Source of the DNA: Eubacteriales bacterium
GTDB lineage: Bacteria > Bacillota > Clostridia > Oscillospirales > CAG-382
Assembly: GCA_045539625.1 (NCBI GenBank)
Contig: JAZQFS010000025.1
Span: 18,626 to 82,625 of the forward strand
Direction: 5' to 3'
Length of the DNA: 64,000 nt
The position numbers were made by a program, and so were the translations under genes. Within the stretch, counting starts at the first letter, position 1. Each line of letters begins with the position of its first letter. A model generated the notes under the pieces. It did no database searches. It was not told where the DNA came from and worked only from the letters and a program-made list of their open reading frames with translations. Of this stretch, positions 1 to 58,952 are shown piece by piece.

Positions 1-2295
1 ACCAAATCTGGATACAGCATTTGTTCCGGGTGTAAATGATGCTCTTTCTTCCATTGTTTCAGGGTCATAAACCTTACCGTTTAAAACAAGAATACTGTCA
101 ACAACATATACTCTTTCGCCGATACTTATATCATGCTTATTTGCCACCATATCGACGCCGGCATGAACATAAGCATTATACGTTACGGAGGCTACGTTTT
201 CCTGACCTGCAGGGATATAAACCTCGGATGCTGCGGTGTAAACACCGTCTGCAAGAGAACCGTAGTTATTTAAGAGAATGCCTATCTTTGGATAAACTTC
301 AGCACCGCTTGTCTTTGAAGCTGTTCTTACATATTCGTTATCAATATATTTTTCATCGTACAGGAACTTTGAAGTAGAATCACCGGCAATAGCTGAACCG
401 TCAAACCAAATTGCACCGCCGTTTACGGTAGCAATTTTCGGGAACGCATTAGCCGCATTAGATGCGTCTACATATTCGTTAACACCAAGAGTACCGTAAT
501 TATGAATTCTGGAGTTTGTGTTATCGGTATTTGCCTTGCCGTTAAAGTGAAGGTTGGCAAGAAGATAGCCAGCATCTGCTTCAGCAGCAGAAGGGTAAAA
601 ATTATCGTCCCATACAGCATAAAGAGTTGTATCTTCTGAATAAATCTTGCTTGCATCTGTGATAAGCTCGCCATTCTTTGTTTCCGACCAGCCTACAAAT
701 CGGCTTGTTCCGCAATCTTCAAGAGTATAGTTTGCAAAAGTAACTGTAGAGCTGACCTCTGCAGTATCGGGAACAACTACATCCTTGCCGTTTGCATCAA
801 GAGTAAGGTTGATTTTTTCAGGTGCATACCAGATTTTAACCCATTTATAGTAACGTTTTACAGAGGCTTTGTCTGCACCGTGACCGGAATAAAGACCGAT
901 ACCACAAAGTCCCTTATTAGCTTCTGTAAATGTTTGGGTTACAGTACCGTTAAGTTTTGAGACCTGCCTGCCTTTATATATAAATGATGCGGAGTATTCT
1001 TTAAATTCCGTACCAAAAGCTGAATTTGCTTGATACACCGGTGCACCACTAAGACTAGAATCATTGACAACAACGGAATTACCTAATGCAGCATCAGCTT
1101 TCGCTACATACTCAATAGTATAAACACCTTCGGGATATGTTGTCATTGCATTGTTTTCATCATACGCAACAAACCAAAATCTAGGCCAATTATGATTGGT
1201 TATGAGGCTGTCGCCATCTGTTTTATAATTGTTATAAGCTTTAAGTTTTGCAGACGGCATACCGCTTATTGCAGGTGCTGAATAGACACTGTGTTCGCTT
1301 ATCGCCAAATCAGTACTGTTTGATATTGTTTTTGCAGCGACATCAAAGTCAACAAAGTAAGCAAGTTTACCGTACTGACTTGTTGTAGCAATTTCTTTGG
1401 TACTGTACTTTGCATACAGTGTTGTATCAGTTGAAATCACAACAGGTTCGGTGAGAATTTCACCGTTTTCTGTGAGTGACCAGCCAAGAAATTCAGATGC
1501 TGTTTCGGGAAGGTATTTGGGTTCATATTCAGAAGGAACAAAGTAACCGTTCTTTACAACCCCAATAGCCGCAGGAACAGCACCCTTGACTGAGAATGTT
1601 ACTGTGCAAGATTCGGGAGTGTAGTAGATATTGATATTATCTACATACCATACGTTTTTTGCATTATTTTCATACGTCACAAAGCCGTTGTGTATATAAC
1701 TTGTTGAAGTAACACCGGATTCATAAACATAACTCTTTTCCTGAGTGCTGAAAGAGTCTGATGCAGTTATTGTATAGCCTTTAACAATATTATTGGTGTT
1801 AGATGCACAAATGGCAGCAGTAAAGCCCTGTGATTCCACATCAACTTTTATATCCTGCTGAATTCTGTAAGTTCCGTTCGGTAATTCATTAGAACCTGTC
1901 AACATCCATCTTGAATGGCTTGAAGTACCTTTAGAAGGGTCACCCTTTAGAATCATATCGGTGCTTCCTTCCGTCTTTGCTTCTACTGTTGCAGTAACTC
2001 CGCTTACAGCAAAAGTCAAAGTAGGAAACTGTGAAGTATAATTGCTTGCTGCAAGTTTCTGATTACTAAACGCCCCTGCACTGAGATTGTCAAAGTTTAT
2101 GCTGTAAACAAGCTTTTCCTCTACCAAATCCGTTGTAACCGCTGTTTCCTCAGCAACCTCTGCCTCGAAAACCTCTGCCGCATCGGCTGCGACTTCCTGT
2201 GTTGTTTCTACTGTTCCGACTGCCACGGGTGCAGCAAATGCCACGCTTGAGAGAACCATAAGGCAAGCCAGAACAAAGCTTAAATACTTTTTCAT
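1..2295 (-). CDS. Secreted repeat-containing surface protein (partial; 3' end lies beyond the window edge)
   Basis: ATG at 2295 (complement) follows an AAAGGAG RBS. The N-terminus MKKYLSFVLACLMVLSSVAFAAP looks like a signal peptide. I checked the frame as open at 2295, near 700 and at 1-60. It is absent from the ORF track because no stop lies inside the window. It contains repeated F(L/V)GWSxTxNGE...TLYA(K/V)(Y/W) motifs resembling Listeria-Bacteroides (Flg_new) repeats. Confidence 0.75.
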   Translation of the reverse strand, partial: MKKYLSFVLACLMVLSSVAFAAPVAVGTVETTQEVAADAAEVFEAEVAEETAVTTDLVEEKLVYSINFDNLSAGAFSNQKLAASNYTSQFPTLTFAVSGVTATVEAKTEGSTDMILKGDPSKGTSSHSRWMLTGSNELPNGTYRIQQDIKVDVESQGFTAAICASNTNNIVKGYTITASDSFSTQEKSYVYESGVTSTSYIHNGFVTYENNAKNVWYVDNINIYYTPESCTVTFSVKGAVPAAIGVVKNGYFVPSEYEPKYLPETASEFLGWSLTENGEILTEPVVISTDTTLYAKYSTKEIATTSQYGKLAYFVDFDVAAKTISNSTDLAISEHSVYSAPAISGMPSAKLKAYNNYKTDGDSLITNHNWPRFWFVAYDENNAMTTYPEGVYTIEYVAKADAALGNSVVVNDSSLSGAPVYQANSAFGTEFKEYSASFIYKGRQVSKLNGTVTQTFTEANKGLCGIGLYSGHGADKASVKRYYKWVKIWYAPEKINLTLDANGKDVVVPDTAEVSSTVTFANYTLEDCGTSRFVGWSETKNGELITDASKIYSEDTTLYAVWDDNFYPSAAEADAGYLLANLHFNGKANTDNTNSRIHNYGTLGVNEYVDASNAANAFPKIATVNGGAIWFDGSAIAGDSTSKFLYDEKYIDNEYVRTASKTSGAEVYPKIGILLNNYGSLADGVYTAASEVYIPAGQENVASVTYNAYVHAGVDMVANKHDISIGERVYVVDSILVLNGKVYDPETMEERASFTPGTNAVSRFG

Positions 2296-2371: not shown

Positions 2372-2497
2372 TTATTCGCCTTGCGCTGTCTCGAAAAGTG
2401 ATGAGCCGTCAATGAGAACGTCGCTTCCGTTTAAAATGTCCTCAGTTGAAAGCTTTACGGTGTCCATTTCGGGACGGGTGTACTGCTTTTTGGTCAT
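2372..2497 (-). CDS. Small acidic peptide, 41 aa (MTKKQYTRPEMDTVKLSTEDILNGSDVLIDGSSLFETAQGE); paralog of the peptide at 47987-48130
   Basis: ATG is preceded by GGAGAGGAG. It has its own TTGACA-17-ATAATA promoter. It lies 77 nt upstream of, and co-directional with, the secreted protein gene. It shares the motif KKxYxxPE...(E/Q)DILN(G/A)S...LFE with a second small ORF in the window. It is below the ORF-track size cutoff. Confidence 0.6.
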   Translation of the reverse strand: MTKKQYTRPEMDTVKLSTEDILNGSDVLIDGSSLFETAQGE

Positions 2498-2528: not shown

Positions 2529-2557
2529 TATTATGCAAGCGCCCGCTTTAATGTCAA
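2529..2557 (-). promoter_or_regulatory. Sigma-A type promoter for the small peptide / secreted protein unit
   Basis: Minus strand has TTGACA (2557-2552), a 17 nt spacer, then ATAATA (2534-2529). Confidence 0.55.
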
Positions 2558-2730: not shown

Positions 2731-2747
2731 ATGGTAGACAATTAAAA

Positions 2748-2848
2748 TCTTATCAAGAGCGGCTGAGGGAACAGGACCTTTGAAGCCCGGCAACCTGTAA
2801 GTTTACAAGGTGCTACTTCCTGCCGGCATTTTGCCGTGAAAGATGAGA
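2748..2848 (+). promoter_or_regulatory. SAM-I (S-box) riboswitch aptamer
   Basis: Sequence is TCTTATCAAGAGCGGCTGAGGGAACAGGACCTTTGAAGCCCGGCAACC...GGTGCTAC...GATGAGA. The P1 pairing is TCTTATC/GATGAGA. It contains the conserved AAGAG-GAGGGA, GCCCGGCAACC and GGTGCTA blocks. It lies directly upstream of metK. Confidence 0.9.
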
Positions 2849-2911
2849 AGTTATTCTTCATTGCTCTTGAACAAAAAAGGGCGTTTTTTTATGCCCGTGA
2901 AAGGACACAAA

Positions 2912-4096
2912 ATGAAAAAGATTCTTTTTACCTCAGAGTCCGTTACCGAAGGACACCCCGACAAAATATGCGACGCCATTTCAGATGCTGTGCTTGATGC
3001 TTATCTTTCACAGGATCCTATGTCAAGAGTTGCTTGTGAAACCATGGTTACAACAGGTCTTTGTATGATTTCGGGTGAAATCACCTCAAAGGGTACTGTT
3101 GATGTTCAGAAAATTGCAAGAGAAACCATCAGAAAAATCGGCTACGACAGAGCAAAATACGGTTTTGACTGCGACACCTGCGCCGTTATCAGTGCGATCC
3201 ACGAGCAGAGCCCCGACATTGCTTTGGGTGTTGACAAGTCTCTTGAAGCAAAAGAGGGCGACAGTGACAAGTACGACACAGGTGCAGGCGACCAGGGACT
3301 TATTTTCGGATATGCCTGCAACGAAACAGATGAGCTTATGCCGCTTCCCATTTCTCTTGCCCACAAGCTTGCAAAGCGTCTTACAGAGGTGAGAAAGAAC
3401 GGTACTCTTCCCTATCTTCGTCCCGACGGAAAAACACAGGTTACGGTTGAATACGTTGACGGCATGCCTTCAAGAATCGAAGCTGTTGTTGTTTCAAGCC
3501 AGCACGATGCAAAGGCAGAGTTAGGTGCAATCAGACGTGACGTTATAAGAGAGGTTATTCGCCCCATTATCCCCGATGAGCTGATGGACGAAAACACCAA
3601 GATATTCATCAATCCCACAGGACGTTTTGTGATTGGCGGCCCAAACGGTGACACAGGTCTTACAGGCAGAAAAATTATAGTTGACACCTACGGCGGTTAT
3701 TCAAGACACGGCGGCGGTGCTTTCTCGGGCAAGGATCCCACAAAGGTTGACAGAAGTGCGGCATATGCGGCACGTTACGTTGCAAAGAATGTAGTTGCGG
3801 CAGGACTTGCTGACAAGTGCGAGGTTCAGATTGCATATGCCATCGGCGTTGCAAGACCTGTATCCGTTCTTGTTGACACCTTCGGAACTTCTAAAGTTGA
3901 CGAAGAAAAGATTGCAAAGGCAGTTGAAAAGTGCTTTGACCTTCGCCCTGCGGCAATTATTGAAATGCTTGACCTTCGCCGTCCCATCTACAGTCCTGTT
4001 TCCTCCTACGGTCATATGGGCAGAGAAGACCTTGACGTAGTTTGGGAAAAGACTGACAAGGCAGAGGCACTCAAGGCGGCAGTTGCAGCTTTATAA
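2912..4096 (+). CDS. metK: S-adenosylmethionine synthase
   Basis: Begins [21 protein letters not shown]; also has GAGDQG and DTYGG motifs. The start was moved from the track ORF (2843) to the ATG at 2912, which follows AAAGGA; the longer ORF would overlap the riboswitch. Confidence 0.95.
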
Positions 4097-47154: not shown

Positions 47155-47229
47155 TGGTGACCCGTACGGGAATCGAACCCATGTTTTCGCCGTGAGAGGG
47201 CGATGTCTTAACCGCTTGACCAACGGGCC
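47155..47229 (-). tRNA. tRNA-Glu (anticodon CUC), CCA encoded
   Basis: The reverse complement is GGCCCGTTGGTCAAGCGGTTAAGACATCGCCCTCTCACGGCGAAAACATGGGTTCGATTCCCGTACGGGTCACCA. The cloverleaf folds, with anticodon loop CT-CTC-AC. Confidence 0.9.
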
Positions 47230-47246
47230 TTAATTGGTACTTGCAT

Positions 47247-47275
47247 ATTGTAGCACAACAAAAAGATTTTGTCAA
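47247..47275 (-). promoter_or_regulatory. Sigma-A promoter of tRNA-Glu
   Basis: Minus strand has TTGACA (47275-47270), a 17 nt spacer, then TACAAT (47252-47247). Confidence 0.75.
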
Positions 47276-47329
47276 GATGTTTTCACAAAAAACAAAGCCA
47301 AAAAATTATTATTTTTTTCAAAAAAGGTA

Positions 47330-47358
47330 TTGACAAACTAGAATTAATGTGATAAAAT
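47330..47358 (+). promoter_or_regulatory. Sigma-A promoter of tRNA-Gln (extended -10)
   Basis: TTGACA at 47330-47335, 17 nt spacer ending TGa, TAAAAT at 47353-47358. Confidence 0.7.
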
Positions 47359-47400
47359 AATTGACGTTGTGAGCGAGGAAGCTTGCAGACAGCCCAATAT

Positions 47401-47475
47401 AGCGGAATTGTGTAACGGTTAGCACGACAGACTCTGACTCTGTTTGTCTGGGTTCAAATCCTAGTTCCGCTGCCA
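47401..47475 (+). tRNA. tRNA-Gln (anticodon CUG), CCA encoded
   Basis: AGCGGAATTGTGTAACGGTTAGCACGACAGACTCTGACTCTGTTTGTCTGGGTTCAAATCCTAGTTCCGCTGCCA. Anticodon stem is ACAGA/TCTGT with loop CT-CTG-AC. Confidence 0.9.
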
Positions 47476-47478
47476 AAA

Positions 47479-47506
47479 ATCCAACTCTTATGAGTTGGAT
47501 TTTTTA
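47479..47506. terminator. Rho-independent terminator after tRNA-Gln (usable on both strands)
   Basis: ATCCAACTC-TTAT-GAGTTGGAT flanked by AAAA on one side and TTTTT on the other. Confidence 0.85.
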
Positions 47507-47633: not shown

Positions 47634-47893
47634 TTACTGTGCTTTAGGGACGTCTGCAATCCTTGTCAGAACAGTATTATCAATACGGTAAGCAAGCTTT
47701 ATACCGGTCAAAGCTCCGTCAACCGCTGTTTTGAAGGGCTGTGATATAAATTTTTCTGCTTTTTACATATACTATATTATACCCTTTTAATACACTTGTC
47801 AAATTTATTACATGAAAAACATAAAAATCCGAACAATTTTAATAAAATTTCCCATAATCGGATGTTCAATTTTTACATTTTTTTGCGATTGAT

Positions 47894-47986
47894 GAAAAAA
47901 AGCCCCATAAAATGAAATAACGCACCGAATCGGTGCGTCTGCAATCATGTAAAACAAGCTGCTATTTCATTCAAATGCCTAGGGGA
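47894..47986 (-). terminator. Compound terminator of the small-peptide gene
   Basis: On the minus strand, an outer stem CCCC..ATGAAATA / TATTTCAT..GGGG encloses an inner CGCACCG/CGGTGCG hairpin and ends in GGGGC-TTTTTTT. Confidence 0.6.
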
Positions 47987-48130
47987 TTAAAGTCCAAGTG
48001 AAGCCAAGCTTTCAAAAAGAACCTCTGCATTGATGAGAGCTTCGTTTTCTGCTTCTCCACTTGCGTTGAGGATATCCTGAGCCGAAACCGCGGACACTTC
48101 AACTTCGGGTGTTGCGTAAGTCTTCTTCAT
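47987..48130 (-). CDS. Small acidic peptide, 47 aa (MKKTYATPEVEVSAVSAQDILNASGEAENEALINAEVLFESLASLGL); paralog of 2372-2497
   Basis: ATG follows GGGAGGA. It has its own TTGACA-17-TACAAT promoter and its own terminator. It shares the N-terminal motif with the first peptide. It is below the ORF-track cutoff. Confidence 0.6.
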   Translation of the reverse strand: MKKTYATPEVEVSAVSAQDILNASGEAENEALINAEVLFESLASLGL

Positions 48131-48162
48131 AAGAAAAATCCTCCCACCTAATTGTTGCCTTC

Positions 48163-48191
48163 ATTGTACACCCGTCAAAGAAAAATGTCAA
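48163..48191 (-). promoter_or_regulatory. Sigma-A promoter of the small-peptide gene
   Basis: Minus strand has TTGACA (48191-48186), a 17 nt spacer, then TACAAT (48168-48163). Confidence 0.7.
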
Positions 48192-48294: not shown

Positions 48295-48323
48295 TTGACA
48301 TTTGAGAGCTATGTGAATATAAT
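48295..48323 (+). promoter_or_regulatory. Sigma-A promoter of the marR-ABC operon
   Basis: TTGACA at 48295-48300, 17 nt spacer, TATAAT at 48318-48323. Confidence 0.75.
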
Positions 48324-48357
48324 AATTAACGTGTTAACAGTTAGCGTGTTAATTAAT
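48324..48357 (+). promoter_or_regulatory. Probable MarR operator
   Basis: AATTAACGTGTTAAC-AG-TTAGCGTGTTAATTAA is two copies of TTA(A/G)CGTGTTAA, each nearly palindromic. They lie between the -10 element and the RBS. Confidence 0.5.
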
Positions 48358-48375
48358 TTACAGGGAGTTGATAAG

Positions 48376-48849
48376 TTGTCACAAGTATTTGACAAAGAAC
48401 GTGCACACGATACCTTTTTCGGTATGCTTCAAACCGACAGGCTGCACAGAAGCGTGGTTGAGGATTTTCTGTCGGTGCTGGGAATACACAGAAGCCAGCA
48501 TCTTACACTGCTGTATCTGTCAAAATCCGAAAACTGTCCGTCGCAAAAGGCTATTGCAGAGCATTTTAAAATAAGTCCTGCCGCAGTTACGGTAACCTTG
48601 AAAAAGCTTGAAGAGGGCGGCTATATACTGCGCAGCAGCGTAGAAAAGGATTCAAGATACAACAGCATTGCCCTTTCCGAGAAAGGAAAAGAAGTTGTTG
48701 CACAGTCAAGAAAGCTTTTTGAGGAAACAGACATTGCAATGTTCAGCGAATTTACCGATGAGGAATACGAGCTGTTCAACAGATGCATAAACAAAATGAT
48801 GGACGGTCTTACCAAATTCAGGCAAAACCGCAACACAAATCAATTGTAG
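48376..48849 (+). CDS. MarR-family transcriptional regulator
   Basis: Winged-helix region (LTLLYL......SQKAIAEHF.ISPAAVTVTLKKLE..GYI.R......D.R.N.I.LSEKG). The TTG at 48376 lies 8 nt after GGGAG, whereas the track ORF start sits inside the promoter. Confidence 0.8.
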   Translation: MSQVFDKERAHDTFFGMLQTDRLHRSVVEDFLSVLGIHRSQHLTLLYLSKSENCPSQKAIAEHFKISPAAVTVTLKKLEEGGYILRSSVEKDSRYNSIALSEKGKEVVAQSRKLFEETDIAMFSEFTDEEYELFNRCINKMMDGLTKFRQNRNTNQL

Positions 48850-48865
48850 AAAGGAAGAATGTAAC

Positions 48866-50611
48866 TTGAATCGTTGGTTTAAATACATAAAGCCCTACCT
48901 GCCCTATTTCATACTTGGACCGTTATGTATGATTATCGAGGTGCTGGGCGAGGTTTTTATGCCCCGTCTTATGGCAAAAATCATTGACACGGCGGTAGTT
49001 GAAAACGTGGCAACAGGCAATTGGAAAGGCGTACTTATAATTGCGGCAGGTATGATTGTACTTGCACTTATAATGATGCTGGGAGGCGTTGGAGGCGCAT
49101 ACTTCGGTGCAAGAGCCTCTGTCAACTTCGGTGCAGACCTTCGTCTTGACGTCTACAGAAAAATACAGAAGTTTTCCTTTGCAAACATTGACAAATTCAA
49201 CACAGGCTCACTTGTTACACGTCTGACAAATGACGTAACACAGCTGCAGAACTTTGTCAATATGCTGCTTCGTATGTTTCTGCGCTCACCCGGTATGCTT
49301 ATCGGTGCCGTTATTATGGCAATACGCATAAATCCGAAGCTCGCTCTCATTCTTGCAATCACCATTCCCATAATGCTGTGCTTTATCGGCATTATCATTA
49401 AGGTAGGCTTTCCACGTTTCGGCAGAATGCAGACCAAAATCGATGCTCTCAACTCAACGGTACAGGAAAATCTTACCAACATCCGTGTTGTAAAGAGCTT
49501 TGTACGTGAAGAGCACGAGCAGGACAAATTTGAAACTGCAAACCGCAACCTTAAGCAAGCGGGTATTCACGCCATAAGCGTTATGATTTTTATGTCCCCT
49601 CTTATGATGCTTCTTATGCACCTGACCTCAATTGCCGTTATATGGTTTGGCGGCGGTCAGGTAATTGTGGGCACAATGAGTGTTGCGGATTTATCTTCCT
49701 TTATTACATATATCACACAGATTCTTATGTCCCTTATGATGTTCTCAATGCTGTTTATGAGCACCAGCCGTGCTTTTGCTTCTGGCAAGAGAATATGTGA
49801 GGTTATGGATGAAAAAATCGACCTTGATGATGCACTTGCTTCTCGGAAGGACAAGGAAGTTACCGAAGGTACAGTTGAATTCAAGGACGTATCCTTCCGT
49901 TACTACAAGGACAGCGAGGAAAAGGTGCTTAACAACATCAACCTTGTCATTCCCGCAGGAAAAACAGTGGGCATTATCGGCTCAACGGGAAGCGGTAAGA
50001 CAACACTTGTTTCTCTTATTCCAAGACTTTACGATGCCGACGATGGCGAGGTGCTTGTTGACGGTGTAAATGTAAAGGAATACTCCCTTAAAAACTTAAG
50101 AAACGGCGTAGGTATGGTGCTTCAGAAGAACGTGCTGTTTTCGGGAAGCATCAGGGACAATCTTCTCTGGGGTGACGAAAACGCAGACGACGAAACAATC
50201 ATAAACGCCGCAGAAAGTGCACAGGCACACACCTTCATTTCCTCCTTCAAGGACGGATATGACACCGAGCTTGAGCAGGGCGGAAGCAACGTTTCGGGCG
50301 GTCAGAAGCAAAGACTTTGTATTGCAAGAGCACTGCTGAAAAAGCCCAAGATTCTCATTCTTGACGACTCCACAAGTGCCGTTGACACAGCAACCGAAGC
50401 AAGAATAAGACACGCCTTTGCAAATGAGCTGCGTGACTCTACCAAAATCATCATTGCACAGCGTATCGGCTCTGTAAGGGATGCGGATATGATTATCGTT
50501 GTAAACGAAGGCGAAATCACAGGCATCGGAAGCCATGCACAGCTTCTTGAAAACAACAAGGAATATCAGGAAATATACTACTCACAGGTTGACGGAAAGG
50601 AGGACAAGTAA
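48866..50611 (+). CDS. ABC exporter, fused permease/ATPase (heterodimer half 1)
   Basis: Six-TM exporter domain followed by GSTGSGKTT, LSGGQKQR and ILILDDSTSAVD. TTG start follows GAAAGGAAG. Confidence 0.85.
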   Translation: MNRWFKYIKPYLPYFILGPLCMIIEVLGEVFMPRLMAKIIDTAVVENVATGNWKGVLIIAAGMIVLALIMMLGGVGGAYFGARASVNFGADLRLDVYRKIQKFSFANIDKFNTGSLVTRLTNDVTQLQNFVNMLLRMFLRSPGMLIGAVIMAIRINPKLALILAITIPIMLCFIGIIIKVGFPRFGRMQTKIDALNSTVQENLTNIRVVKSFVREEHEQDKFETANRNLKQAGIHAISVMIFMSPLMMLLMHLTSIAVIWFGGGQVIVGTMSVADLSSFITYITQILMSLMMFSMLFMSTSRAFASGKRICEVMDEKIDLDDALASRKDKEVTEGTVEFKDVSFRYYKDSEEKVLNNINLVIPAGKTVGIIGSTGSGKTTLVSLIPRLYDADDGEVLVDGVNVKEYSLKNLRNGVGMVLQKNVLFSGSIRDNLLWGDENADDETIINAAESAQAHTFISSFKDGYDTELEQGGSNVSGGQKQRLCIARALLKKPKILILDDSTSAVDTATEARIRHAFANELRDSTKIIIAQRIGSVRDADMIIVVNEGEITGIGSHAQLLENNKEYQEIYYSQVDGKEDK

Positions 50612-52501
50612 ATGGCAGGAAGAAATTTACAGGAGCTTAAAAGCCGTTACAACAGCTCCTCCTCAAAATTCGGCGGTTCGGGCGGTCCGGGCGGTCCGGG
50701 CGGCGGTCCGAGAGGACCGGGGGGTGCTGCAATGCGCGGTGCATCAAAGCCCAAAAACGTAATGCCAACCATAAAACGTCTTTTCGGATACATTTCACAG
50801 TACAAGGCAAAGCTGATTTTCGTTATGTTCTGCATGGCATTCAGCACAGGCTCTACACTTATTTCAGGCTATATGTTAAGACCTGTCATCAACAACATTG
50901 CAGACCTTAGCACCTCTGCTTCCGACAGAATCAAATATCTGATTGTAATGCTCGGCGTTTTGCTTGCCGTTTACTTTATCGGCGTTGCCTCCACCTACAT
51001 ACAGAGCAGAACCATGCTGAGAATATCACAAAGTGCCATTGAAACCTTAAGAAACGATTTATTCAGAAAGGTACAGCGTCTTCCTCTTCGTTTCCACGAC
51101 AACGAAAACACAGGCGAAATTATGAGCCGTTTTACCAACGACGTTGACAACATCGGTATGATGCTTGACTCAACAATTGTAAGCCTTGTTTCAGGCACCG
51201 TCACGCTTATCGGCACACTTTGCATGATGCTCTACACCAACGTATGGCTTTCAATTATCATTCTTGTGTGCACTCCCCTGTTTCTCAAGGCAGGCGGAAA
51301 GATTGCTTCTTCAAGCAGAAAATTCTATTCTGCACAGCAGGCGTCCTTAGGTGCTGTGAACGGCTACATTGAAGAGTCGGTTACGGGACAGAAGGTTGTA
51401 AAGGTATTCAACCACGAACAGGCTTGTATTGACGAGTTTGCACTTCTCAACGATGACCTGAGACGCACCCAGATAAACGCCAACTTCTTCGGCGGCATTA
51501 TGGGCCCCGTAATAGGAAATATGAGCCAGGTGAGCTACAGCATAACGGCAGGTGTGGGCGGTATTCTGTGTGCTCTGGGCAAATTCGACATCGGCGGTCT
51601 TACGGTTTTTGTAAACTACGCAAGACAGTTTTCACGTCCCATTAACGAAATATCAATGCAAATGACAACGGTTTTCTCGGCTCTTGCAGGTGCTGAACGT
51701 GTTTTTGCCGTAATGGACAAGGAACCTGAACAGCCCGACAGTGAAAATTCCGTTGCAATGCCCGATATGAAGGGACACGTAATCTTAGACAATGTATCCT
51801 TCGGCTATGTTCCAGAAAAGACGGTTCTTAAAAACATTTCGCTGTACGCAAAGCCGGGGCAAAAAATAGCTTTTGTCGGCTCGACAGGTGCAGGTAAAAC
51901 CACTGTTACAAACCTTCTCAACCGCTTTTATGATATTGACGAGGGCACAATAACCATTGACGGCGTAAACATCAAGGACATAAAGCGTGAGGATTTGCGA
52001 AAGAACATCACCATGGTGCTTCAGGACACCCACCTGTTCACAGGTACGGTTATGGAAAACATCCGTTACGGCAGACTTGATGCTACAGACGAGGAAGTCA
52101 TTGCCGCCGCAAAAACAGCAAGTGCACATTCCTTCATCATGCGACTTTCCGACGGCTACAATACAGTGCTTGAGGGAGACGGTGCAAACCTTTCTCAGGG
52201 ACAAAGACAGCTTTTAAACATTGCACGTGCGGCTCTCAGCAAAGCACCCATACTTGTTCTTGACGAAGCTACAAGCTCTGTTGACACAAGAACAGAACGT
52301 CACATTGAGCACGGCATGGACAGACTTATGAAGGACAGAACAACCTTTGTTATAGCTCACAGACTCTCCACGGTACGCAATTCAAACGCCATTATGGTGC
52401 TTGAAAACGGCGTGATAGTCGAAAGAGGCGACCACGATGACCTGCTGCGTCAGAAAGGCAGATACTACGAGCTTTACACAGGCAAAAAAGAGCTTGACTG
52501 A
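50612..52501 (+). CDS. ABC exporter, fused permease/ATPase (heterodimer half 2)
   Basis: Gly/Pro-rich N-terminus, then a TM domain and GSTGAGKTT, LSQGQRQL and LVLDEATSSVD. The ATG is adjacent to the upstream stop. Confidence 0.85.
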   Translation: MAGRNLQELKSRYNSSSSKFGGSGGPGGPGGGPRGPGGAAMRGASKPKNVMPTIKRLFGYISQYKAKLIFVMFCMAFSTGSTLISGYMLRPVINNIADLSTSASDRIKYLIVMLGVLLAVYFIGVASTYIQSRTMLRISQSAIETLRNDLFRKVQRLPLRFHDNENTGEIMSRFTNDVDNIGMMLDSTIVSLVSGTVTLIGTLCMMLYTNVWLSIIILVCTPLFLKAGGKIASSSRKFYSAQQASLGAVNGYIEESVTGQKVVKVFNHEQACIDEFALLNDDLRRTQINANFFGGIMGPVIGNMSQVSYSITAGVGGILCALGKFDIGGLTVFVNYARQFSRPINEISMQMTTVFSALAGAERVFAVMDKEPEQPDSENSVAMPDMKGHVILDNVSFGYVPEKTVLKNISLYAKPGQKIAFVGSTGAGKTTVTNLLNRFYDIDEGTITIDGVNIKDIKREDLRKNITMVLQDTHLFTGTVMENIRYGRLDATDEEVIAAAKTASAHSFIMRLSDGYNTVLEGDGANLSQGQRQLLNIARAALSKAPILVLDEATSSVDTRTERHIEHGMDRLMKDRTTFVIAHRLSTVRNSNAIMVLENGVIVERGDHDDLLRQKGRYYELYTGKKELD

Positions 52502-52576: not shown

Positions 52577-53290
52577 TTATTTTTCAAGCATTATGCTTAC
52601 TGCTTTATACGCTATTGCAAGTCCTGCCGCAGGCGGTACAAAGGCACTGCTTGCAGGGGTGCTTCTTGTTGCTTCACCTTCGTCATCAGGCTGAAACAGA
52701 GGTGATTTCGGCTCTTCCTCCGAATAAACCACCGTCAACTTTTTTATGCCGTTTTTCTTGCACAGCCCTCTCATAACCCTTGCAAGAGGGCAGGTCTTTG
52801 TCTTATAAATATCGGTAACGACAATTTTTGTGGGATCAAGCTTATTGCCCGTTCCCATTGAGCTGATTACGGGAATATCAAGCCGGCAGCAACGCTTTAC
52901 AATATCAATTTTTGCACTTACCGTATCAACGGCATCGATTACAAAATCATATTGGGAAAGGTCTATTTTCTCGGCGTTTTCGGGAAGATAAAACATATTG
53001 AAGGTTGTACACTCAATACAGGGATTTATCTGCTTAAGCCTTTGCCTCATAACCTCTGTTTTATACTGTCCGACAGTATCTTCAAGTGCAATAATCTGCC
53101 TGTTTCTGTTGGAAACGCTGACTTTATCGTTGTCCACAAGGTCAATTCTCCCCACACCGCTTCTTGCCAGTGCCTCGCACACATATCCGCCAACGCCTCC
53201 AACGCCGAAAACAATAACCTTTTTGCAGGACAGGCGTTGTACTGCATCATTTCCCACAAGCATCTCGAAGCGAAGAAATTTTTCACTCAT
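52577..53290 (-). CDS. tcdA: tRNA threonylcarbamoyladenosine dehydratase (ThiF/TcdA family)
   Basis: Contains VIVFGVGGVGGYV.EALARSGVG.I.LVD.D.V..SN.NRQ. Confidence 0.8.
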   Translation of the reverse strand: MSEKFLRFEMLVGNDAVQRLSCKKVIVFGVGGVGGYVCEALARSGVGRIDLVDNDKVSVSNRNRQIIALEDTVGQYKTEVMRQRLKQINPCIECTTFNMFYLPENAEKIDLSQYDFVIDAVDTVSAKIDIVKRCCRLDIPVISSMGTGNKLDPTKIVVTDIYKTKTCPLARVMRGLCKKNGIKKLTVVYSEEEPKSPLFQPDDEGEATRSTPASSAFVPPAAGLAIAYKAVSIMLEK

Positions 53291-54257
53291 TTGTGTTTTC
53301 CTCCTTTACGGGAGAGGTGCTTTTTCTCTTTTTTCTGCTTGTACGCCGCCTTGAAGGACGTCTTGTACCTGCCTTTTCAAAATACTCACGTGTTTTTTCA
53401 TCAAGTATGTAAATCTGCTGGCTGACGGAAAAGGTTTTCTGAGGCGTTTCGCAAATCTTTATAACCGCCATAAACGAGCCGTCCTTTTCACAGCAGCCTT
53501 CGATGTGATACTTGCTGTTGCCGATGCGTTTTGGCTTTTCAAGCTTCATTTTTTCTCCGCAGCAGGGACAGGCAGGACGTGTTATAAACTTATTTGCCCA
53601 TATATCGTCACGGTTTTTGATGTGCCTGAATTTTCTCTTTACAAGAACAGGACTTGTCTTATCCCCTTTTGCCTCGTGCGACGGCATATACTTGAGGTTT
53701 TCTATGCCCTTTTTGAGGTCAAGATGCTTGCACACCGCCGCCGTGTATTCTGCATCGTTAAGGGCATCGTGAAGCTGTTCGTCAACCGTTATGTCAAAGT
53801 AATCAAGAGCATAGGACAGTGCATACTGTCTTTTTTCAAGCCCCATCTGAGCGCAGAAAATCATCTGCAGATTATAATGGTTGGGTATCCATCTGTCATC
53901 CAGTCCGTGAAAGGCGTGGTTGTTGCGTAGTATTCTCACATCATCGTAGCCCCATATGAGAAGCACAAATTCTTCACCGCACCATTGTCTGAAGCTTTCC
54001 ATTGCTCCTTGAAAGCTGTCGCCCATATCAAGCATTTCATCTGTTATGCCCGTAAGCTGCTTTATGACCTTATTCATTGATGTCAGGCTTACGGGCTTTA
54101 TTATTTTTCTGAAGGACGAAAGGCGCAGAGCGTCTTCTGACAGCTTCACTGCACCTATCTGTATTATTTCGTTTTTCATACAAACGCCGTTTTTACACAG
54201 CACCGCCTCACCGTAGCCCGGCTGATTCCATTCCATGTCAAGAACTATATAATTCAT
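53283..54257 (-). CDS. DEDDh-type 3'-5' exonuclease with a C-terminal Cys-rich domain and basic tail
   Basis: Begins MNYIVLDMEWNQ (Exo I); also has IIQIGAVK and HDALNDAEYTA (Exo III). The C-terminus has CPCCG...CC and RRPSRRRTSRKKRK. The ATG at 54257 follows AGGAG. Confidence 0.7.
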   Translation of the reverse strand: MNYIVLDMEWNQPGYGEAVLCKNGVCMKNEIIQIGAVKLSEDALRLSSFRKIIKPVSLTSMNKVIKQLTGITDEMLDMGDSFQGAMESFRQWCGEEFVLLIWGYDDVRILRNNHAFHGLDDRWIPNHYNLQMIFCAQMGLEKRQYALSYALDYFDITVDEQLHDALNDAEYTAAVCKHLDLKKGIENLKYMPSHEAKGDKTSPVLVKRKFRHIKNRDDIWANKFITRPACPCCGEKMKLEKPKRIGNSKYHIEGCCEKDGSFMAVIKICETPQKTFSVSQQIYILDEKTREYFEKAGTRRPSRRRTSRKKRKSTSPVKEENTNE

Positions 54258-54348
54258 TTTACGCTCCTGCATTTTTATCATTGGAAACAGTATAACACAT
54301 TTTATCCGCCGTTTCAACGGTTTTTTCTGTTTTATTTTACTTATTTTT

Positions 54349-56631
54349 CTATTCCTCGAAGTTTTCCGACACCACAGCCTTTCCCATTCTGTCGCAAAGC
54401 TCCTTTGCCGCCTCAAAGTTCGCCGCCTCGCTGATGATTTTAAACCCTCTTACTCTTCCGGGTATTACCGTCACCGTCCCCGAGGAGGTTTTCACCGACA
54501 CTCCGTTTTCTCGGCGCTCTGCACTGCCGTAAAGACTGCAAAGCCTTTCCATGGAGTGTGCCCTGCTCTTTTCTCCGTAATAGGTATCGGTATATATTTC
54601 AAAAGCCGAAAGACCTTCCTTTATTTCCTTAATTCTTTTTCCGCTTACCGCCATAAGGCAAAGCAATGCGCAAAGACAAAAGCCCGCTTCCCTGCATACA
54701 AGAAAATCAAGAAGCTTTGCTTCAAGAAGCGCACTTGTAACGGAAAATATATTTTTGCAGTCTGCACCCGTTTTCTTGGCTTCTCTTTCAAATGAAAAGG
54801 GCTGGTTTTCATTTATATATGCTTGGGAAAGACCTATGTCCACCGTTTGCGGTGAATACAATGCACAAAGGCTGTGGTGAAAATCCATTTGGGAGCTGTT
54901 GTCCTTTACAGTAAAGCCTTCATTGTCAAATTTTACCGTAAGCTTATTGTTCCTGCTGTTATCGCTGTGGGTACAGAATTGGGAAATCACCGCCGAAAGT
55001 GCCTTTTTTCTCTCATTATCCTCACCGTCAAAGGAAACATCAAAATCAAAGCAAGGAAGTCCGCACAGCATATTTTTTATGCCCTGCTTTGCTGCAAGTG
55101 CATATATTTGTGAAGCTCCCTCAATCTTCAGAACACGGCATTTTTCGGACTCTTCACTTTCCTTTATGCGGCAGGATACGCTGTACTGTTTTGATATTTT
55201 TCTCTCGAGGCTGTCGGAGATTTTTTCGCCGCTTGGAGTGAAAAGTACAATTTCAGCCTTTTCTCCCATTCTTTCAACAACAGCCGTTACATCGGCAGGA
55301 TAATATACCGAAGCGAAAGCGGCGAGAGACGAATCGGCATCGGAAAGCTCAAGAACGGTAACATTGCCGCCGCAGCCTTCAATAAAGCTCTGTCTCAGTT
55401 TGCAATCTTCACATATGAGACATATGCTTATTTGCTTTTTGCCGTCTTCAATCGACAGGCACAGACTTCTTGCAAAATTTCCTACATCATCTTCACGGCA
55501 CACCGCCGTTCCGTCATCAACAAACATACTTTCGCCGTCCTTGGTAAAATTGTTTTTTATCATTCTTCCGTCACAGTACACAGAGGTGTTTTTTTCAAGC
55601 ACCGTTCCTTCCTTTATGACACAGCCGTCGGCTATAACGCAACCTTTTTCAAGTATGCAGTTTTCGCCAACCTTTACTCCGTCACCTATAATCACACCGC
55701 TTAAAGAGCTTCCTTTACCAATATACACTCCGTCTCCCAAAACACTGCCCGACACCGTGCAGTCTTTTTCCACCGTACAGTCATCACCGCACACAAAGCC
55801 GTCATCAAATACAACATTGCTTCCGATAACGGCGTTTTCGCCGATATATACGCTGTCCCTTGCATCGATGCCCACTTTTTTCAGCTTTTCCGAGAAAATT
55901 TCATCGGGTTTTACCGACAGCACCTGTCCTCTGCAGGCGTCTATATTACAACCAAGGTAATCGTCAAAGCTTCCTATATCGCACCAGTAGCCGTCGCAGA
56001 CTAACGTTCTCACATCATACCCCTCTTTTATAAGCCTCGGGAACAAATCCTTTGAAAAATCATATACTTTGTCTTTGGGTATTGCATCAACCGCACGCTT
56101 TGACAAAACATAAATTCCCGTATTCACCGTATCCGACACCACCTTTTTCCACGGCGGCTTTTCATCAAGCCCGTATACCTTTCCCTTTTCATCACACAAA
56201 ACAACGCCGAAGGATGTGGGATTGTCCCATCGTCTGCTGACTATTGTGACATCTGCTTTGCTGACGTTATGGAATAAGAGAATTTTTTCAAGGTCAAAGT
56301 CAAAAATTCCGTCTCCCGACAGCACAAGGACGGTTTCCCCGATGTTTTCACAGCATTTTTTCACTCCTCCTGCCGTACCCATAGGCGTTTCTTCAAGTAC
56401 AAGGCGGGCGTTTTTGTATTTGCTTATACACCGTTCCACACTCTGCCACTTATAGTGTGCCGATACCGAAATATCGCTCACCCCAAGGTTTTCAAGCTTT
56501 TCCATTGCTATGTCAAGTACGCTTTTGCCCAAGATTTTCATTAACGGCTTCGGGCGGCTGTCGGTAAGAGGTGCAAGTCTTGTGCCGAAGCCACCGGCAA
56601 GCACTACGGCGCTTATTTTTTTCGACTCCAT
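54349..56631 (-). CDS. Sugar-1-phosphate nucleotidyltransferase fused to a left-handed beta-helix and a phosphomannomutase-like C-terminal region
   Basis: AVVLAGGFGTRL.PLT...PKP motif, then hexapeptide repeats. The C-terminal ~400 aa has FDGEDNER (compare DGDGDR) and GTVTVIPGRVRGFKIISEA (compare the PGM domain 4 loop). I found no TASHNP-type phosphoserine motif. The ATG at 56631 was chosen as start. Confidence 0.65.
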   Translation of the reverse strand: MESKKISAVVLAGGFGTRLAPLTDSRPKPLMKILGKSVLDIAMEKLENLGVSDISVSAHYKWQSVERCISKYKNARLVLEETPMGTAGGVKKCCENIGETVLVLSGDGIFDFDLEKILLFHNVSKADVTIVSRRWDNPTSFGVVLCDEKGKVYGLDEKPPWKKVVSDTVNTGIYVLSKRAVDAIPKDKVYDFSKDLFPRLIKEGYDVRTLVCDGYWCDIGSFDDYLGCNIDACRGQVLSVKPDEIFSEKLKKVGIDARDSVYIGENAVIGSNVVFDDGFVCGDDCTVEKDCTVSGSVLGDGVYIGKGSSLSGVIIGDGVKVGENCILEKGCVIADGCVIKEGTVLEKNTSVYCDGRMIKNNFTKDGESMFVDDGTAVCREDDVGNFARSLCLSIEDGKKQISICLICEDCKLRQSFIEGCGGNVTVLELSDADSSLAAFASVYYPADVTAVVERMGEKAEIVLFTPSGEKISDSLERKISKQYSVSCRIKESEESEKCRVLKIEGASQIYALAAKQGIKNMLCGLPCFDFDVSFDGEDNERKKALSAVISQFCTHSDNSRNNKLTVKFDNEGFTVKDNSSQMDFHHSLCALYSPQTVDIGLSQAYINENQPFSFEREAKKTGADCKNIFSVTSALLEAKLLDFLVCREAGFCLCALLCLMAVSGKRIKEIKEGLSAFEIYTDTYYGEKSRAHSMERLCSLYGSAERRENGVSVKTSSGTVTVIPGRVRGFKIISEAANFEAAKELCDRMGKAVVSENFEE

Positions 56632-56743
56632 ATTGCTCAGTTCCTTCCAGAATGTACTGCCTGTATGATTTGCACTTTTTTCCCGTCTATTCATTTTTGC
56701 AACAATGTTTACAAATTTATGTAATGTAAGGACTAAAAAACTA

Positions 56744-56772: not shown

Positions 56773-56825
56773 ATAATCGGAATAAAAAAAGTGCGCCTAC
56801 AGTCGCCGAAAGGATGGTCAAACGT

Positions 56826-58949
56826 ATGAAAAACAGAAAATCAAGGTTGCTTTTTGCCGCTTGCTTAATTGTACTTTTTGTGTGCAGTCTTATGTGCTTT
56901 GCAGAGCAAGCTGTGTTTACCCAGCACAAGGTAATTCTCAGCTATGACAAGCAGGCAAACACCGTTGATGCCGACATTTACATTTCAAAGGGTACGGCAA
57001 TAGTCGGCTATTGCAGCTTTACCTATGACAGCAGTGTGCTTCAGCTTACCGATGTCAACGGAAATGCAGTAAATGCAGGAAATGTTCCATCCTTCAGCCA
57101 AGACGGAAGTATATTTCTTGACGATGTTATCACAGCCCACAACGGCGTTGTGATTACCGATATAGGCAAGGGAACGCCTAACCTTGTCAACCCCGAAGAA
57201 GGCTACTTTATGTTTGCGTGGTTTCTCCCGGGAAGTATTCCCTGCTTAAGTGCAAACGAAGGTGTCGATGTGCTTATTGCAAGTGTAAAATTTGAGCTTA
57301 TAGACGACATAACCTATGAAGAGTTTGACAAGGATACCTTCTGGGTTGCCGACAGCGAAGTTACCGACAAGGTCAAGGGCTGGTATCCCGGCATTGTTGT
57401 TATGAACGACAAGCAGCAGCAGTTCAACTTTGACGGCACTGTTGAAGACGGCGATCTGTTCCTGCTGGAATATGAATTTGAAGACCTTGAAGGTTATTTT
57501 AAGCCTTCAGAAAAGCCTGAAAACGAGCCCGACACTGAGCCCGATAATGAGCCTGATACTGAACCCGACGTTGAGCCCGATGCAGAACCCGATGTTGAGC
57601 CTGATACTGAACCCGATGCAGAACCCGATGTTGAGCCTGATACAGAGCCCGATACCGAGCCCGATACTGAGCCCGACACTGAGCCTGATACCGAGCCTGA
57701 TACAGAGCCCGATACTGAGCCTGACACTGAGCCTGACACTGAGCCCGATACCGAGCCTGATACAGAGCCTGATACAGAGCCCGATGACACACAGGACAAG
57801 GACACAACAACAGTTCTTGCAGAAAACACGGCTTTCAAAGCAGACTTCAGACTTGAAATAACAAAGACAGACTCCACCGTACATATATCCTGGGAAAAGC
57901 CATCGGACATAGATAAGCTTGAAAATTATGTTGCCGTACTTTGCGACGGTGATTACAATGTAATAAAGGAAGTTGTTATTTTCAACTCCAGCACCTCCTA
58001 CACCTTCAAGAATTTAAAGGACGATTTTACATACAAGCTTTACTTCTACGGTGCAGACGGCAATAACACCTACTGTTCGGACATATACACAGTAAAAACC
58101 CCTGCTGCACAGAACAAAGAGCCCATAATTTTCAACGTCACATACGATGCAGGCAAAGGCAGGCTTTACGGTCTTGAAGCCGAGGACGTGCTCTTCGGTG
58201 AGCTTCTTACCAAAGTTCCCGCAGTAACTGCTCCCGACGGCAAGTATTTTGCAGGCTGGACAAAGGACGGAAAAAGCTTATACAATGTATCTCTTCCCGT
58301 TTACTCTTCTGTAAAGCTCAAGGCTTTGTATACCGATGTTTCTCCCGTCACAGCCTCTTCATACATAACAGGCTACACCGACGGCACCTTCAAGCCTGAC
58401 GGGCTTATTACACGTGCGGAAGCGGCTTCGCTTATAGCAAGGCTTTCGCCTGAATTTGATTCCGTTCAAAGCTTTTTCCACGGCTTTTCCGACTGTACGG
58501 AGGGTGCATGGTACGAAAAGGCAGTTGCCTTCTGCAGCTCAAAGGGATACATTACAGGCTACCTTGACGGCACCTTCAATCCTTCGGGCAACATTTCAAG
58601 AGCGGAATTTGCAACAATTCTTGTAAGAGTATTCTCATTTGATGTTCAGAACAAAACAGATGTATTTTCCGATATGAGCGGTCATTGGGCTTGTCCCTAT
58701 GTTTCACAGCTTTTCGGTGCAAGTATTGTTACTCCCGATGAAAACGGCAAGTTCAGACCGTCTGAAAAGCTTACCCGTAAAGATGCCGTTGTGATGCTCA
58801 ACAAGTGTCTGGGTATTACCCCCGACAAGGCTGCCATTGACAGCTATCTTGACAGTAACGGCTACAAATTCACCGACGTTGAACAGTACAAGGACTGCTT
58901 CTATCCCATTATGGCGGCAACCCTTAAAGACGAGGACTACAACAGATAA
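56826..58949 (+). CDS. Cell-surface protein: signal peptide, cohesin-like domain, EPDx linker, Listeria-Bacteroides repeat, three SLH domains
   Basis: Signal peptide MKNRKSRLLFAACLIVLFVCSLMCFA. Cohesin-like block CSFTYDSSVLQLTDV...IASVKFELIDD. 22 EPDx repeats. The motif YFAGWTKDG...LKALY. SLH motifs: YITGYTDGTFKPDGLITRAEAA, YITGYLDGTFNPSGNISRAEFA and FRPSEKLTRKDAV. Confidence 0.75.
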   Translation: MKNRKSRLLFAACLIVLFVCSLMCFAEQAVFTQHKVILSYDKQANTVDADIYISKGTAIVGYCSFTYDSSVLQLTDVNGNAVNAGNVPSFSQDGSIFLDDVITAHNGVVITDIGKGTPNLVNPEEGYFMFAWFLPGSIPCLSANEGVDVLIASVKFELIDDITYEEFDKDTFWVADSEVTDKVKGWYPGIVVMNDKQQQFNFDGTVEDGDLFLLEYEFEDLEGYFKPSEKPENEPDTEPDNEPDTEPDVEPDAEPDVEPDTEPDAEPDVEPDTEPDTEPDTEPDTEPDTEPDTEPDTEPDTEPDTEPDTEPDTEPDTEPDDTQDKDTTTVLAENTAFKADFRLEITKTDSTVHISWEKPSDIDKLENYVAVLCDGDYNVIKEVVIFNSSTSYTFKNLKDDFTYKLYFYGADGNNTYCSDIYTVKTPAAQNKEPIIFNVTYDAGKGRLYGLEAEDVLFGELLTKVPAVTAPDGKYFAGWTKDGKSLYNVSLPVYSSVKLKALYTDVSPVTASSYITGYTDGTFKPDGLITRAEAASLIARLSPEFDSVQSFFHGFSDCTEGAWYEKAVAFCSSKGYITGYLDGTFNPSGNISRAEFATILVRVFSFDVQNKTDVFSDMSGHWACPYVSQLFGASIVTPDENGKFRPSEKLTRKDAVVMLNKCLGITPDKAAIDSYLDSNGYKFTDVEQYKDCFYPIMAATLKDEDYNR
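57525..57788 (+). repeat. In-frame 12-nt tandem repeat, 22 units (GAGCC(C/T)GA(T/C)ACN encoding EPDT/N/V/A/D)
   Basis: I counted the units directly in the sequence. Synonymous variation (GAG/GAA, CCC/CCT, GAT/GAC, ACT/ACA/ACC) separates the units. Confidence 0.95.
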
Positions 58950-58952
58950 CTT

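Follow-up and report, generated by a model that had tools for sequence, protein, structure and literature searches.

A free-standing gene for a small acidic peptide in an Eubacteriales bacterium is probably related to precursors of linear polyphosphorylated peptides

A 64,000-nucleotide stretch of the genome of an Eubacteriales bacterium (NCBI GenBank assembly GCA_045539625.1, contig JAZQFS010000025.1, positions 18,626 to 82,625 of the forward strand), hereafter the window, carries two genes for small acidic peptides of a single family. Our subject is the second of these, copy 2, an open reading frame (ORF) whose product contains eight acidic and two basic residues and recurs in identical form (protein P0001) on 9 metagenome contigs. 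The first-pass annotation of the window had described copy 2 as a fully autonomous mini-gene of 47 aa with its own promoter, ribosome binding site (RBS) and nested terminator, and each of these was located where it had been placed (Table 1). The mini-gene is genuine: it is monocistronic, carries its own expression signals and encodes a small acidic peptide. Its full autonomy, while true of copy 2 with its own promoter and terminator, is nevertheless exceptional in the family, most members of which are a cistron following a large secreted protein.

Table 1. Coordinates, in the window, of the two peptide genes, their expression signals and the genes adjoining them.
Feature	Position	Strand	Details
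Copy 2 ORF	47987..48130	(-)	ATG start; 47 aa; stop codon included; product MKKTYATPEVEVSAVSAQDILNASGEAENEALINAEVLFESLASLGL
Leader-like part of copy 2, codons 1-24	48059..48130	(-)	MKKTYATPEVEVSAVSAQDILNAS; Y5-x-x-P8, D19-I20-L21, S24
Core-like part of copy 2, codons 25-47	47990..48058	(-)	GEAENEALINAEVLFESLASLGL; acidic, fast-evolving; L-I-x-A-x-x-L-F motif retained
RBS of copy 2	48139..48145	(-)	GGGAGGA; 8 nt 5' of ATG
Sigma-70-type promoter of copy 2	48163..48191	(-)	TTGACA-17-TACAAT; 11/12 consensus positions
3' untranslated region of copy 2, nested fold	47895..47986	(-)	terminator hairpin 47919-47939, then T-rich tail, GGGGC-T7
Leftover promoter	47774..47802	(-)	TTGACA-17-TAATAT; serves a large secreted-protein gene in sibling strains; gene absent here
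Copy 1, family paralogue	2372..2497	(-)	41 aa, MTKKQYTRPEMDTVKLSTEDILNGSDVLIDGSSLFETAQGE; own promoter 2530-2557 (-); without terminator
Large secreted-protein gene	1..2295	(-)	at least 765 aa; signal peptide; Listeria-Bacteroides repeat; starts 76 nt past copy 1 stop
Divergent promoter of MarR gene	48295..48323	(+)	12/12 consensus; ~100 bp from copy 2 promoter
MarR regulator and two ABC exporter genes	48295..52501	(+)	ABC genes 48866-50611 and 50612-52501

The region around copy 2 holds six promoter-like sites against 2.8 expected. The stronger argument for its promoter is conservation in orthologues: neither TTGAC of the -35 nor TAnAAT of the -10 element varies across five orthologous loci. 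In the same loci the RBS block AGGAGGATT is invariant and the ATG is also conserved. Behind the ORF, the G+C-rich intrinsic-terminator hairpin GACGCACCGATTCGGTGCGTT sits inside a larger nested fold of the 3' untranslated region (-28.4 kcal/mol, z = -2.3), which ends in GGGGC-T7 at 47906-47895. The inner hairpin is kept in the orthologues, with compensatory changes (GCACCG/CGGTGC versus GCACTC/GAGTGC) at two loci, L041 and L008, and the final T7 run shows no conservation among them.

A word-indexed exhaustive search recovered the identical protein and eight related clusters at 60-93% identity. Over these 9 orthologue clusters residues 1-24 are nearly invariant, and the pattern of change in codons 1-24 is that of a coding sequence: the pairwise ratio of non-synonymous to synonymous differences (pN/pS) is 0.04-0.16 while pS reaches 0.3-0.7, variable sites number 5/2/13 by codon position, and one serine codon has switched from TCC to AGT. 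The C-terminal part evolves differently, with pN/pS of 0.36-1.0 and several indels between orthologues. The first-pass annotation had named an RNA function as the alternative to a coding one, and the substitutions in codons 1-24 decide for coding: copy 2 is a real protein-coding gene under selection. Its slow N-terminus and fast C-terminus form a predicted leader/core layout. AlphaFold gave no confident fold for the peptide alone (predicted local distance difference test score 71, predicted template modelling score 0.25), with residues 1-16 extended. Such two-part selection, together with the absence of a confident autonomous fold in the model, would fit a substrate peptide that folds on binding.

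One orthologue departs from this picture. At L008, in a metagenome-assembled genome (MAG; JAZNIM010000078.1, 3950-4090), codon 18 has changed from CAG to TAG; the remaining ORF is undecayed and the signals are intact. In its close relative L041, which differs by one synonymous and one non-synonymous change over codons 1-24, the ORF is intact. The stop codon could be a strain-level lesion or an error, for example a gene only recently inactivated, strain variation or a fault in the assembly, and we read it as no evidence for an RNA gene. Rfam returned nothing relevant at the locus, either at gathering thresholds or at E<=1.

The resemblance of copy 2 to the 41-aa peptide encoded near the start of the window, which the first-pass annotation had noticed, was borne out: 16 of 40 positions are identical (40%; BLASTP E = 1e-9). 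The conserved N-terminal half that it had singled out is indeed common to both copies, but appears to be more than a family domain. It has the form of a YxxP-type leader as bound by the recognition proteins of peptides that are ribosomally synthesised and modified post-translationally (RiPPs), and its homologues occur in operons like those of the linear polyphosphorylated peptides (LPPs).

Neither Pfam nor NCBIfam has a model that matches the two window peptides above threshold, and the same holds for NCBIfam over 131 family members. The commonest sub-threshold matches are lasso precursor leaders, which copy 2 reaches through residues 1-9. A 16-sequence profile run against 1.84 billion representative proteins (a 50%-identity library) gave 245 matches at E<=0.001, nearly all of 34-70 aa. 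Their consensus is MKKxYxxPEhEhxxhSxxDILxGS, then 0-10 mostly acidic residues, then hhIDGsDLF with an acidic tail. Across the 131-member alignment Y5 is invariant, and P8, D19, I20 and S24 are each at least 90% conserved. S24, at the leader/core boundary, is invariant in alignment A1 and at least 90% conserved in alignment A5, and is by analogy a candidate phosphosite. A scan of one genome per species located 25 family loci in MAGs of gut and rumen Clostridia (Eubacteriales, Oscillospiraceae, Ruminococcus), plus one MAG labelled Bacteroidales, with up to four copies per genome. Both window peptides belong to the DILxGS...LF subtype, which accounts for 17 of these loci. A metagenome scan for the SDVLIDGS-type core found no confirmed match.

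The interpretation of copy 2 depends on the company that its homologues keep. When the neighbouring genes of the 25 genome loci were clustered into families, four enzyme families stood beside the family peptide at 8 of them (L016, L017, L019-L022, L025 and L027). These are a PqqD protein of 90 aa (PF05402, 5e-19; lasso B1-type model lasso_PqqD, 7.5e-11); a P-loop kinase-like protein of ~235 aa, whose best matches are ScmC/HprK-related (TIGR04249, 1e-6; precomputed PF27840); a protease of ~150 aa that resembles signal peptidase I of the archaeal type (SpI), with invariant GxSMxP, HR and GDN (TIGR02228, 1.6e-5); and a nucleotidyltransferase (NTP_transf_5) of ~360 aa (PF14907, 8e-42). Searches of PDB gave only weak matches to HPr kinase around the P-loop for the kinase-like protein (E ~ 0.3) and no match for the SpI-like peptidase. 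An ABC exporter is also present at most of these loci; it is absent from L025, a minimal operon of peptide, kinase, PqqD protein, peptidase and nucleotidyltransferase. Their housekeeping flanks include rpoBC, glnA, FTHFS and adhE. The flanking genes scanned at 7 of the 8 loci included neither a lasso cyclase nor a B2 protease, and no radical-SAM enzyme.

The same gene set recurs more widely. The kinase family is very large in gut metagenomes, with at least 6,615 clusters at 90% identity. Look-up of its homologues returned the set again in the called genes of five loci (L042-L046), and a kinase-seeded scan of metagenomes added 80 further loci, among which the kinase-PqqD-peptidase triad is found in 20 of the 32 with full flanks. 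A recognisable family peptide is present in 18 of the 80 and none lies nearby in the other 62; at enzyme loci without a match to the hidden Markov model (HMM), the 1.5 kb upstream of the kinase gene was searched by motif for small ORFs and yielded nothing convincing. An HMM trained on enzyme-adjacent homologues alone matches copy 2 (E = 3e-12, aligned to its first 30 residues) and copy 1 (6e-7) and no other of the 1,773 six-frame ORFs of the window, and a motif scan likewise returned exactly two family copies. Further, the window core SGEAENE...LFE is similar to enzyme-linked cores, among them SGETEEIEEGGFDNF (L093). We consider it very probable, on these sequence comparisons, that copy 2 is homologous to the Clostridial LPP-like precursors. 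As a separate observation, a 131-aa lipoprotein-like ORF lies between the peptide and kinase genes of L042 (9606-10001), and its C-terminus (...EQGWGALM) echoes that of the neighbouring peptide (...GGWGDIL).

LPPs were defined as a group of RiPPs, mainly in Bacilli, by Popov et al. (Nat Commun 2026; PMC13381572). Their core genes encode an SpI-like leader peptidase (LppS), a discrete RiPP recognition element (RRE; LppB), an HprK-like kinase (LppK), an NTP transferase (LppN) and an MsbA-like exporter (LppD), and their precursors (LppA, 35-200 aa) combine a conserved YxxPxVLxHQxIxFETxxS leader with variable C-termini (PMC13381572). LppK places several phosphates on core Ser3 of LppA, and LppS, with a Ser/His/Asp triad, cuts after T-1 only when the leader is presented by LppB; the biological role of LPPs is given as unknown (PMC13381572). 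For the Clostridial peptidases that it lists, the paper gives 'other' under RRE and 'not determined' under precursor, and Clostridia are unmentioned in its main text; its table also places some LPP precursors and RREs elsewhere in the genome (PMC13381572).

We compared the Clostridial enzymes directly with the sequences of Supplementary Data 1 of that paper (PMC13381572). The peptidase is 27-33% identical to LppS-type enzymes of cluster 1 (E = 5e-9 to 1e-7), with Ser/His/Asp conserved, and 42% identical (7e-39) to a Ruminococcus SpI in cluster 9 of the sequence similarity network (SSN). For the PqqD protein, identity is 28-30% with LppB (2e-10 to 4e-7) and 42-49% with the RREs of SSN clusters 4 and 9. 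By homology, the gene set beside the Clostridial peptides is the LPP core set: the homologues' operons have the same five gene types (SpI-like Ser/His/Asp peptidase, PqqD-type RRE, HprK-like kinase, PF14907 transferase and MsbA-like ABC exporter) and no lasso cyclase. The precursors are alike too, being short, with a conserved leader that starts MKKxYxxP, a hypervariable C-terminus and a serine at the leader/core junction, and copy 2 carries the YxxP RRE-binding motif as Y5-A-T-P8.

Several differences nevertheless separate the two groups. The Clostridial leader follows the pattern YxxPEhEhxxhSxxDIhxxS, with one or two extra residues; the hosts are gut Clostridia rather than Bacilli; and the neighbouring genes encode large secreted proteins rather than capsule loci. 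Identity of the Clostridial peptidase and RRE with LppS and LppB is only ~30%, and both match instead those SSN clusters for which the paper determined no precursor. The window gene, moreover, is an orphan with no enzymes nearby. Because the likeness of the peptides to Bacilli LppA ends at MKKxYxxP and the Px9Fx[T/A] pattern is missing, the Clostridial family is, by sequence, a sister branch and not LPP proper.

Other known systems share parts of this gene set. The phosphorylated lasso peptides of Firmicutes (paeninodin with PadeK, pseudomycoidin with PsmN; PMC8498205) likewise use an HprK-like serine kinase, a PF14907-type transferase, a PqqD-type B1 protein and a [Y/W]xxP leader. They differ in having a macrolactam cyclase, a transglutaminase-like B2 protease and a Thr at -2, none of which is seen here, and the product of the Clostridial systems would be linear. 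The SynChlorMet/HPr-rel-A systems (TIGR04248/04249, TIGR04352/04353) supply the best curated match of the kinase, ScmC, and the PqqD protein weakly matches ScmD and PqqD_rel_X. However, the scores fall far below the cut-offs (TIGR04249, 28 bits versus 125; TIGR04248, 21.6 versus 100), and the radical-SAM partners ScmE/F are absent at the loci examined. In the prochlorosins, dispersed precursor genes are processed in trans by one enzyme set. The Clostridial family resembles this arrangement in its several paralogous precursors per genome, located away from enzymes, with conserved leaders and variable cores, the difference being that processing in trans is here inferred.

We favour, with a probability of roughly 0.55, the reading that copy 2 encodes a leader-plus-core, precursor-type peptide of the Clostridial LPP sister branch that is processed in trans. 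By analogy with the Paenibacillus system, a PqqD-type recognition protein would bind the N-terminal leader through Y5-x-x-P8 and the following beta-strand. The HprK/ScmC-like kinase would then phosphorylate the serine at the leader/core junction, for which the near-invariant S24 is the candidate; the cytoplasmic, archaeal-type signal-peptidase-like Ser/His/Asp protease would cut off the leader; and the ABC exporter would release an acidic core of ~25 residues that begins near A23/S24. We infer leader binding, phosphosite, cleavage and export, and their occurrence in the window organism, from these analogies. Processing would have to be in trans, because orphan copy 2 has no such enzyme within 64 kb. 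A separation of precursors from enzymes is plausible, because most kinase-seeded loci carry no family peptide and the LPP paper's table has precursors encoded elsewhere in the genome (PMC13381572).

A number of results weigh against this reading. The PqqD, ScmC-like, SpI-like and PF14907 families are all absent from the 64-kb window by six-frame hmmsearch, and Pfam, run on nearly all of its ~50 candidate genes, returned housekeeping functions only: S-adenosylmethionine (SAM) synthetase (MetK, behind a SAM riboswitch), EF-P, MetRS, CysRS, RNase Y, SpoIID, a MiaB-like radical-SAM enzyme and phosphoenolpyruvate carboxykinase. Two ORFs (53283-54416 and 54349-56694) were annotated by synteny with a related locus, L007, alone. 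With no modifying enzymes in the window, copy 2 is by homology an orphan precursor-like gene. Nor is there an enzyme cluster closer than 10 kb at any of the 17 genome loci of its subtype, and in genomes with three or four such copies (CAKSEL, UMGS1387) no copy in the scan stands beside one. The leader itself departs from the LPP patterns Px9Fx[T/A] and YxxPxVLxHQxIxFETxxS, its position P8+10 being Q18 and not F. To an HMM of ten Bacilli LPP precursors, copy 2 scores E = 1.2 and copy 1 E = 0.68 among the 1,773 window ORFs, with the alignment limited to MxKKxYxxP. Finally, most members of the DILxGS...LF subtype have an extra C-terminal motif, hh-I-D-G-S-D-L-F (L-I-x-A-x-x-L-F in copy 2), which is absent from enzyme-linked members and points to a further or different constraint.

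The most general neighbour of the family is a large secreted protein. In 23-26 of 33 family peptide loci the adjoining same-strand gene encodes a large signal-peptide protein; its end is usually 11-24 nt ahead of the peptide start, and in some cases it follows the peptide directly. The metagenome loci agree: 15 of 20 peptides there have the same adjacency. These proteins have no common domain; they contain Big_2, BspA-type leucine-rich repeats, Flg_new (Listeria-Bacteroides repeats) or no known domain. Modules of secreted protein plus peptide can be tandem (L024, L032 and L045). In the window, copy 1 and the secreted-protein gene downstream of it probably form one operon. Sibling contigs with 98% identity carry, behind copy 2, a gene with an RBS for a signal-peptide protein of at least 582 aa (L001 4810-6601). 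Homology between the window and these strains breaks at 47753, which indicates that the surface-protein slot behind copy 2 varies between strains, and the leftover promoter drives nothing obvious in the window. We also considered the peptide as a mimic of part of the neighbouring secreted proteins and rejected this, having found no similarity.

Tandem family peptides occur at L024 (6933-7061 and 10001-10120), L032 (9513-9641 and 10001-10108) and L045 (9747-9911 and 13267-13443), and also at L076 and L087. At L024 and L045 every tandem peptide follows its own large secreted protein, and at L045 the two modules flank a ScmC-like kinase gene.

On its other side, copy 2 faces a divergent MarR regulator gene and two ABC exporter genes. 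The conserved block TTAACAAAGTTATCTCAAAAAAGTTTAA lies between the two promoters. The perfect MarR promoter overlaps the listed TTG start of a 184-aa ORF, so the true MarR start is probably further downstream, past 48330. Just past this promoter, an imperfect 21-nt palindrome (48318-48338 / 48340-48360) and the direct repeat TAAnAnTTAnCGTGT are candidate MarR operators. The order of divergent peptide, MarR and two ABC genes is kept in all copy 2 orthologues. The exporters are 24-27% identical to those of LPP-like clusters, a generic similarity on which we rejected the adjacent pair as cluster-type exporters; the third ABC gene of the window (58953-60668) is likewise generic. Since the exporters are no closer than this, and since the orthologues are closely related, the link between copy 2 and the MarR-ABC genes may be mere synteny.

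These neighbourhoods suggest other explanations for copy 2. One possibility, which we regard as doubtful, is that copy 2 encodes an enzyme-independent acidic protein of LPP-like descent, an unmodified partner of large surface proteins that would act, for example, as a cytoplasmic holdase, export cofactor or extracellular ligand and whose conserved N-terminus would be retained for another binding partner. It draws on the fact that a large signal-peptide protein, and not the enzyme set, is what family peptides most generally adjoin, in genome and metagenome loci alike, with copy 1 lying 76 nt upstream of such a gene and sibling strains carrying one after copy 2, as well as on the window subtype's own C-terminal motif and the lack of enzymes within 10 kb at its 17 loci. 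A specific protein-protein partnership is nevertheless hard to picture when the neighbours share no common domain and the peptide shows no similarity to them. The Y and P used in RRE recognition by LPPs and lasso peptides stay invariant, and the copy 2 lineage keeps the gene without such a neighbour at L009, L037, L041 and in the window. Less probable still is a signalling or pheromone peptide exported by the MarR-controlled ABC pair and co-regulated with it from the shared divergent promoter region. The gene order is held down to 60-65% peptide identity, two rearranged loci (L010 and L012, 58% peptide identity) keep MarR and an ABC2 orthologue by the peptide, and intergenic blocks are conserved between both promoters. 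Yet synteny would be expected anyway among relatives this close (81-83% DNA identity), and the exporters, ABC_membrane+ABC_tran proteins of the ordinary heterodimeric kind, lack a peptidase domain and are as distant from the cluster exporters as noted above. MarR regulators, for their part, usually sense small molecules, and such neighbours are missing from copy 1 and from most of the family.

Two further explanations seem to us highly implausible. A lasso-peptide precursor is suggested by the first ~10 residues (MKKxYxxPE), which are like lasso leaders, by weak NCBIfam matches to lasso_cyano (copy 2 E = 0.26; 16 of 131 members, the best at 0.045) and to the paeninodin family, and by the spacing S24...E30, which formally allows a 7-residue ring. 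We rejected it, since neither an Asn-synthase-like cyclase nor a transglutaminase-like B2 protease was found among the window genes scanned or in the flanks of 7 of the 8 enzyme-linked loci, and the penultimate leader Thr is missing, the window peptides reading DILNAS and DILNGS. Copy 1 and most family members, moreover, have no Asp/Glu at core positions 7-9 counted from S24. The other explanation, equally improbable, takes copy 2 for a non-coding RNA or a chance ORF whose conservation stems from RNA structure or regulatory DNA. The in-frame TAG of one MAG with conserved flanks and the structured, conserved 3' untranslated region can be cited for it, but it is contradicted by the third-position bias, the serine codon switch and low pN/pS of codons 1-24, by the conserved RBS and ATG, by homologous peptides at 30-50% identity in many genera, and by the empty Rfam search.

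Copy 2 is not categorically new, because the enzymology that its homologues indicate was published in 2026 (PMC13381572). What is new in the gene and its family is the divergent leader, the other host clade, the orphan status and an unreported coupling to secreted proteins. The family supplies candidate precursors for the Clostridial branch, where the LPP paper determined none (PMC13381572), and its precursor-like genes are often unlinked from enzymes. For annotation, it offers a name and a model for hundreds of tiny ORFs that are now unannotated or uncalled.

The coupling is in our view the most valuable lead to the function of LPP-type peptides: the gene of a family peptide usually follows directly on a gene for a large, adhesin-like secreted protein, and occasionally precedes one, an arrangement previously unreported. 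We tentatively speculate that the LPP-like peptides of gut and rumen Clostridia serve large secreted surface proteins as dedicated companions. The functional unit could then be a module of signal-peptide protein plus leader-bearing acidic peptide, often tandem and dispersed around the genome and relying on one set of PqqD protein, kinase, peptidase, nucleotidyltransferase and exporter; after export the (phospho)peptide would work on, together with or for the co-expressed surface protein, and orphans would be remnants or free-standing modules. Possible roles include anchoring, matrix assembly and the reporting of surface-protein expression. If true, this would give a first hint of what this class of RiPPs does. 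The coupling itself yields a testable hypothesis on the cell-surface biology of abundant gut anaerobes.

Some minor observations concern copy 1 and its type. The C-terminus of copy 1, LFETAQGE (2372-2400 (-)), resembles the FET/AQS leader/core junction of a published Bacillus LPP precursor (...VRFETAQSW...); this likeness is probably coincidental, though it falls within the family's conserved LF motif. Upstream of copy 1, a SAM riboswitch (2747-2849 (+), 73.7 bits) precedes the SAM synthetase gene (2843-4096 (+)), and their 12/12 promoter (2702-2730) stands back-to-back with that of copy 1. A third family peptide, of copy-1 type (P0011, 38 aa; L033-L036), occurs in four of the metagenome samples in which the window's peptide is present. 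A truncated ORF ends 18 nt upstream of its gene, and an AraC regulator and a 1,767-aa SLH protein follow; the gene may be a further copy in the window organism.

Elsewhere in the window, 56814-60668 (+) encodes an SLH-domain protein (711 aa) and then a single ABC exporter (571 aa). A 72%-identical orthologue of this exporter adjoins a module of secreted protein and peptide at L010 and L012, a placement that points to one ancestral neighbourhood since rearranged. Finally, in the 83%-identical relative L007 (8565-8887), the tRNA-Glu(CTC)/tRNA-Gln(CTG) block found at 47155-47479 of the window is turned round with respect to its flanks.

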